IMG/VR virus record: IMGVR_UViG_2645727901_000016
From: a virus
Taxonomy: Duplodnaviria; Heunggongvirae; Uroviricota; Caudoviricetes
Strand: one strand, 5' to 3'
Length of the DNA: 9,831 nt
Shown here: piece by piece, positions 524-597 of the stretch
How positions within the stretch are numbered: the stretch's first letter is position 1
Layout: each line of letters begins with the position of its first letter
The notes under the pieces: model-generated
What the model was told of the DNA's origin: nothing
The model's database searches: none
Seen by the model: the letters and a program-made list of their open reading frames with translations, nothing else
Made by a program: the position numbers and the translations under genes

Positions 524-597
524 GCTGCGTGGCCAGATCGCTAATCAGTTGCGCCAGGCTGCGTGGCCAGATCGCTAATCAGTTGCGCCAGGCTGCG
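524..597. repeat. perfect tandem duplication, 34-bp unit (GCGTGGCCAGATCGCTAATCAGTTGCGCCAGGCT), 2.2 copies
   Basis: Positions 527-560 and 561-594 are identical. Identity extends to 524-597 in total. GGCTGCG microhomology sits at the junctions. 34 is not a multiple of 3. Confidence 0.95.

Follow-up and report, generated by a model that had tools for sequence, protein, structure and literature searches.

Genetic context of the locus

The window (the whole stretch of 9,831 nucleotides analyzed here) is the reverse complement of positions 3 to 9833 of JHTE01000012.1, a contig of 108,521 bp in the E. coli draft genome GCA_001266335.1, and represents the early region of an epsilon15-like (Uetakevirus) prophage. 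Only 2 nt of the contig lie beyond window position 1. On the minus strand, a Cro-sized ORF is followed by genes for a metallophosphatase, a DnaT-like replication protein and RuvC, and then by the broken gene that is the subject of this work; the opposite strand encodes a repressor, RecT, an exonuclease, and an MT-A70 methylase. The gene for the RuvC-like Holliday-junction resolvase (738 to 1202, minus strand) is the upstream neighbor of the broken gene in the same operon. An earlier note, made by a model from the letters alone, had recognized a resolvase of this type at this place, and the product indeed passes the Pfam RuvC profile (PF02075, 29.5 bits vs a cut-off of 22.2); the resolvase gene is also annotated as RuvC in relatives. 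Farther upstream, a perfect TCTTC microsatellite of 4.6 units (1742 to 1764) lies inside the DnaT-like replication gene (1324 to 2139, minus strand). The integrase gene of the prophage directly adjoins guaA, coding for GMP synthase (record L009, positions 1 to 2976), which suggests that the integration site of the epsilon15-like prophage in the EPEC lineage is beside guaA.

A perfect tandem duplication of 34 bp

A perfect tandem duplication with a period of 34 occupies 74 bp of the window (524 to 597) and is made of two 34-bp copies and a common 6-bp end. TRF reported an array at 524 to 597 with a period of 34, 2.2 copies, 100% matches, 0 indels, and a score of 148, the only long array within the window, and a script found positions 527 to 560 identical to positions 561 to 594, with the limits of the period-34 identity at exactly 524 and 597. 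Both thus confirm the mismatch-free pair of copies, 527 to 560 and 561 to 594, that the earlier note had described. The copies stand head to tail at a spacing of 34, with nothing in between. In this register, copy 1 (527 to 560) contains the premature stop of the N-terminal frame (543 to 541), and copy 2 (561 to 594) is the first that the ribosome reaches on the minus strand. The sequence across the duplication is CCAGGCTGCGTGGCC, and the duplication junction reads ...GCGCCAGGCTGCGTGGCCAG.... A perfect period-34 match over 40 positions in 9.8 kb would be far above chance, our figure of roughly 4^-40 per site being an estimate and not a computed test.

The hexamer GCTGCG occurs at 524 to 529, at 558 to 563, where it marks the new junction, and at 592 to 597. 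The microhomology had been given as the 7-base GGCTGCG, a length that has to be corrected to 6 bp since base 523 is A, whereas bases 557 and 591 are G. The starts of two GCTGCG hexamers are separated by 34 bp in the ancestral allele; the one-copy alleles of the sister prophages described below are identical to the window across the site except for the insertion, and hence both hexamers are present in them. A search for inverted repeats around the site returned only 6-bp palindromes and one 11-nt imperfect pair, with no convincing hairpin that could assist slippage, and a promoter and terminator scan of positions 1 to 3500 gave counts not above those of shuffled sequences and nothing close to the site.

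Effect of the duplication on the gene

The minus-strand ATG at 681 to 679 is preceded by a GAGGG Shine-Dalgarno sequence (691 to 687) with a 5-nt spacer. The frame that opens there (541 to 681, minus strand) has 41 native codons, continues with PGATD, and ends at the stop codon at 543 to 541, so that a truncated product of 46 amino acids is encoded. An insertion of 34 nt cannot be divided into whole codons, so the ribosome is moved into the +1 frame and terminates after these 46 residues; about 150 residues are thereby lost from a protein hit early, at codon 42 of 190. When one copy was deleted in silico, a single ORF of 190 codons was obtained, running from 681 to 75. The path traced in the earlier note, from a start at 679 to 681 through copy 2 to a +1 shift and a stop in copy 1, therefore has the right coordinates, and its arithmetic for the removal of one copy is exact.

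The out-of-frame remainder (75 to 563, minus strand) corresponds to residues 30 to 190 of the intact protein. Its first start codon is a GTG at 518 to 516, which lies 23 nt past the stop of the 46-codon ORF and has no Shine-Dalgarno sequence; the gene caller used for the source genome predicted a piece of 105 amino acids within this remainder (P0074). The 147-aa ORF that was said to begin inside copy 1 begins instead at this GTG, six bases outside the repeat, although its open frame does reach back into copy 1. With a C-terminal open frame that is not preceded by a Shine-Dalgarno sequence, the gene would be effectively knocked out, and truncation is thus predicted to cause the loss of function of the encoded protein, as far as can be judged from the sequence.

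The next gene on the minus strand, of which only the 5' end (1 to 78) lies in the window, starts with a GTG at 78 to 76 that overlaps the TGA stop of the broken gene at 77 to 75. Because the stop of the one gene overlaps the start of the other (GTGA), coupled translation of the next gene may also fall, in what would be a polar effect of the duplication. The downstream product has 89 amino acids in the sister prophage (positions 10570 to 10839 of record L004). Relatives have an equivalent ATGA overlap at the stop and start, suggesting a translational coupling that the frameshift would break.

The broken gene is Eae-like and mosaic

The restored protein matches three PHROG families, phrog_492 (2.1e-41), phrog_368 (4.9e-33, residues 31 to 190) and phrog_614 (1.7e-27, residues 15 to 190), none of which carries a function annotation; the profiles of PHROG 368 and PHROG 614 align across the duplication site. 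About 5,900 homologues were collected, mostly annotated "hypothetical," "Eae-like domain," or "ead/Ea22-like" and found in prophages of E. coli and Salmonella, and the orthologues in epsilon15, 65FD, and SPN9TCW are annotated as Eae-like. The duplicated codons (S30 to Q41) fall in the most conserved block of the family, in which R29, A32, S36 to L42, V44, and Q45 are invariant in 19 aligned sequences.

The restored 190-aa protein gave no Pfam hit at E<=0.1 and none to PF13935 even at E<=10; searches of Pfam, NCBIfam, and PDB sequences returned no meaningful match, and an exact look-up of the restored protein found no record. With respect to PF13935 (gathering threshold 27 bits), a relative with 61% identity (P0078) scores 30.5 bits, and a score of 80.6 bits is reached by the product of the second gene downstream in the sister prophage. 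AlphaFold2, run with an alignment of 29 sequences, produced a low-confidence, all-helical model (pLDDT of 59.7, pTM of 0.29) with a long helix at residues 29 to 75.

The two ends of the gene have different affiliations. The N-terminal block is common to epsilon15-like phages. The C-terminal part of about 230 nt (window positions 74 to 305) has 95 to 99% identity to a module, or to ead/Ea22-like genes, carried by hundreds of prophages and plasmids of E. coli, and window positions 438 to 1300 match a different and small set of sequences, which shows that the gene is mosaic. The broken gene is a mosaic, non-essential, Eae-like accessory gene of the prophage.

Other short products in the protein cluster of the 46-aa product (P0123 and P0126 to P0129) share the same N-terminal 32 to 45 residues and then diverge or stop; one of them, of 56 amino acids, comes from Salmonella enterica subsp. 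houtenae (6 contigs). Mosaic joints, truncations, or contig breaks may often fall in the N-terminal part of the gene. At the other end of the gene, the end of the source contig, 2 nt past window position 1, and the ends of the sister Logan contigs near position 225 fit breaks of assembly induced by repeats.

The relatives carry a single copy

The earlier note had asked for a comparison with homologous prophages, and two of them proved to be very close. The sister prophages JHQV01000010.1 (GCA_001265165.1) and JICH01000009.1 (GCA_000691085.1) both have one copy of the 34-bp unit and an intact 190-aa protein (WP_028119982.1), and, within about 10.6 kb, the 34-bp insertion and three single-nucleotide polymorphisms (SNPs), at window positions 2688, 1224, and 164, separate them from the source. 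JICH01000009.1 belongs to the EPEC O127 isolate S6995, sequenced on an Illumina HiSeq and assembled with Velvet (PMC4056304). A literature search on the JHTE and JHQV accessions found no publication; only the genome announcement of the JICH sister turned up.

We extended the comparison to all contigs that encode the identical RuvC neighbor, including contigs from Logan, in which SRA runs are assembled one by one in de Bruijn graphs at k=31. Eight of the 11 such contigs have one copy of this allele, one has a different allele of 164 amino acids, and the lesion is seen only in the remaining two, the source and one Logan contig. Five of the eight one-copy contigs, which come from other samples, encode the intact WP_028119982.1. 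Low-coverage contigs from the metagenome ERZ15609958 (L008 and L014) combine the alleles at 2688 and 1224 that are otherwise private to the source with a single copy of the 34-mer and an undisrupted gene. The duplication must therefore be younger than the SNPs at 2688 and 1224, and the lineage of the immediate one-copy ancestor is circulating. That the event is very recent, as the note had claimed from the perfect identity of the copies, is thus borne out by sisters only three SNPs away and by a one-copy relative sharing two private SNPs.

In a short-query BLAST of window positions 500 to 621 (122 nt) against complete E. coli genomes and phages, the two-copy allele was found in none of the 5,426 complete E. 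coli genomes and in none of the 12 phage records. A single copy is present in the more distant relatives, namely E. coli MARGA_3 and USMARC-50748, Salmonella phage 65FD, and 11 additional phage records; two complete E. coli records cover the full 122-nt query within 88 nt and so contain one copy. Every match over the full query length was shorter by 34 nt in the record. An exact search for the 27-nt junction showed it to be absent from the GTDB representatives, IMG/VR, and the JGI metagenomes. The microhomology is not kept in the relatives, one of its ends being CACAGC in MARGA_3 and CGCAAC in 65FD. The one-copy allele is hence the ancestral, wild-type state, found in all relatives including one with private SNPs of the source. 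As all homologues examined are single-copy and have one frame across the site, the claim that the duplication frameshifts a gene of about 190 codons that is intact in the one-copy state is upheld.

Two further differences among these contigs are worth recording. The private SNP at window position 164 gives the source a Tyr at residue 162, where the sister prophages have His, and both residues are found in other relatives; since the position is within the multi-copy module, gene conversion from a paralogous prophage gene, or consensus mixing with it, is possible. A run of seven C residues (G7 on the minus strand) at 1209 to 1215, in the Shine-Dalgarno region of the RuvC-like gene, has a length of 7 in the source, JHQV, and Logan ERR13952294, of 6 in JICH, and of 11 in the contigs of ENA ERZ15609958 and Logan ERR10689791. 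Its variation could be real homopolymer slippage affecting RuvC translation or sequencing noise in low-coverage contigs.

The duplication is indirectly supported by a second assembly

One alternative is that the isolate is truly one-copy and that an assembler, or chimeric reads close to the end of a contig, produced the duplication. Several features of the data invite this suspicion. The short-read draft contig ends about 525 bp away from the duplication, the window begins with 300 nt of a multi-copy module that breaks assemblies, and the sister genome from the same laboratory was built from Illumina reads with Velvet (PMC4056304). Furthermore, the exact 46-aa product is on record from one contig only, JHTE01000012.1, and thus solely from the NCBI assembly. 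However, a homology of 6 bp cannot let a de Bruijn or overlap assembler create a new junction, and the junction k-mers must come from reads.

The Logan contig with the lesion, SRR19671048_130 (40,800 bp), matches the source without a difference, both private SNPs included, along the whole 2,335 nt that were retrieved, and terminates at window position 568, which is codon 38 of the gene. By construction, each 31-mer occurs once in Logan contigs; k-mers seen only once are removed and edges of low coverage are simplified (PMC12424806), a treatment that itself argues against an artefact. In a k=31 de Bruijn simulation, the duplicated allele gave unitig ends at 568, 558, 534, and 524, and the one-copy allele gave none. 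A break at exactly 568 is therefore expected only if the reads of SRR19671048 contain the junction, with its k-mers seen at least twice. The Logan contigs of the sister samples cross the site unbroken and end at about window position 225, at the edge of the module repeated in many prophages.

This test was done at the level of contig ends and not on the reads themselves; if the NCBI assembly was made from the reads of SRR19671048, both assemblies derive from one library and are not independent, and a mixed population of one-copy and two-copy cells would give the same graph topology. Nonetheless, the position of the break and the inability of a 6-bp homology to generate the junction make an assembler artefact unlikely, so that the artefact suggested as one alternative in the earlier note is largely excluded, and we regard any origin of the duplication in assembly or sequencing as improbable. 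The mutation could have arisen in laboratory culture rather than in the host.

Discussion

Our results identify, with a probability that we put at roughly 0.85, a real and very recent microhomology-mediated tandem duplication (MTD) in a prophage of a single E. coli isolate. Duplication by strand slippage between short direct repeats is among the classical slippage mutations of E. coli. The ancestral prophage would have had two GC-rich GCTGCG hexamers 34 bp apart within codons 29 to 42 of an Eae-like early gene. During replication, a nascent strand ending in one hexamer may have slipped back onto the other and copied the same 34 nt again. The resulting perfect copies could in turn collapse to the wild type by reverse slippage. 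Events of this class have been described in Schizosaccharomyces pombe, where MTDs of 55 to 92 bp with 5 to 8 bp of homology at their ends frameshift genes and revert at about 1e-4; MTDs were also detected in E. coli, and GC-rich microhomology is favored (PMC8639346).

Such reversibility raises the question of whether the duplication serves as a selected on/off switch, a "temporary mutation" of 34 bp that silences the Eae-like gene to the benefit of the lysogen and flips back by precise deletion. Mechanistically, a reversible slipped-strand switch, which the earlier note had listed, is possible: tandem duplications are able to revert precisely and frequently when their copies are perfect (PMC8639346), the lesion falls early in the gene, and Ea22 of phage lambda, a relative of the family, influences the choice between lysis and lysogeny (PMC7093339, PMC10834534). 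If the duplication were such a selected switch, and a rapidly reversible one, silencing of the Eae-like gene, and possibly of the coupled next gene, would benefit the lysogen, for example through altered induction or superinfection behavior, precise collapse would restore a fully functional phage, and the locus would be a natural example of MTD-based switching in a bacterium or prophage. Yet the collections searched contain neither recurrence nor copy-number polymorphism. The two-copy state occurs in one isolate only, and copy number does not vary among eight near-identical contigs, 5,426 complete E. coli genomes, 12 phage records, and three contig collections. Moreover, there are two copies of a 34-nt unit, unlike the many-copy short repeats of contingency loci, and the relatives have not preserved the microhomology. 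We therefore consider a selected switch very improbable.

Finally, we reject programmed frameshifting and a functional split gene, in which separate N- and C-terminal pieces or +1 ribosomal frameshifting would give a useful protein, as extremely improbable: the C-terminal open frame does overlap the end of the 46-codon ORF, with a GTG shortly past its stop, and a gene caller did propose a 105-aa piece, but there is no Shine-Dalgarno sequence before GTG 518 or before the ATG at M51, the minus strand between 541 and 597 has neither three identical bases in a row nor a known +1 shift motif, no split homologue was found among the roughly 5,900 relatives scored, the best of which read through, and exact look-ups of the 147-aa and 139-aa C-terminal pieces found no record.

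Among the alternatives that had been listed for the duplication, the evidence thus favors a fresh inactivating mutation. The event is best read as a neutral or mildly selected pseudogenization and not as a device. It is an ordinary mutation of a well-known class, strain-specific and located in a dispensable accessory gene of a prophage, and not a new kind of element.

The finding has little significance except for the annotation, which should show a single frameshifted pseudogene of a 190-aa Eae-like gene (orthologue WP_028119982.1) at this locus and not two small ORFs. It also provides a clean natural example of an MTD, only a few SNPs away from its one-copy ancestor, and illustrates that the end position of a contig from a k-mer assembly can be used as a read-level check when the reads cannot be opened. 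If both alleles were present in the isolate, or if it reverted readily, the rates of duplication and collapse in a prophage could conveniently be measured in it, and it could also be used to probe the function of Eae-like genes.

Comparison with known systems

Accessory proteins of the Eae-like or Ead/Ea22-like kind occur in lambdoid, P22-like, and epsilon15-like phages. One of them, lambda Ea22, favors lysogeny, and its architecture combines a short N-domain with a coiled coil and a C-terminal domain (PMC7093339, PMC10834534). The restored protein resembles this layout (PMC10834534) in its conserved N-terminal block, its predicted long helix, and its variable, mosaic C terminus. Unlike a relative with 61% identity, which just passes PF13935, it does not itself reach a Pfam threshold, and unlike the genes of the exo-xis region, the broken gene sits downstream of the replication and RuvC genes. 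Lambda Ea22 is a distant namesake, and the functional parallel, drawn by analogy, is a lead only.

As in phase-variable contingency loci, the frame of the broken gene depends on how many copies of a tandem repeat lie close to its 5' end. Contingency loci are built from many copies of units of 1 to 9 nt, however, and here a 34-nt unit is present in 2.2 copies, with no copy-number variation among strains and no sign of selection for the repeat.

The closest parallel is with the MTDs. As in those, a few tens of base pairs are duplicated head to tail, the ancestral ends share a short GC-rich sequence (6 bp here, 5 to 8 bp in PMC8639346), the length is not a multiple of 3, so that the gene is frameshifted and inactivated, and close relatives carry the one-copy wild type. 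At 34 bp, the duplication is shorter than the 55- to 92-bp examples, and it is a single natural occurrence, affecting a gene of a prophage in a clinical isolate of E. coli.
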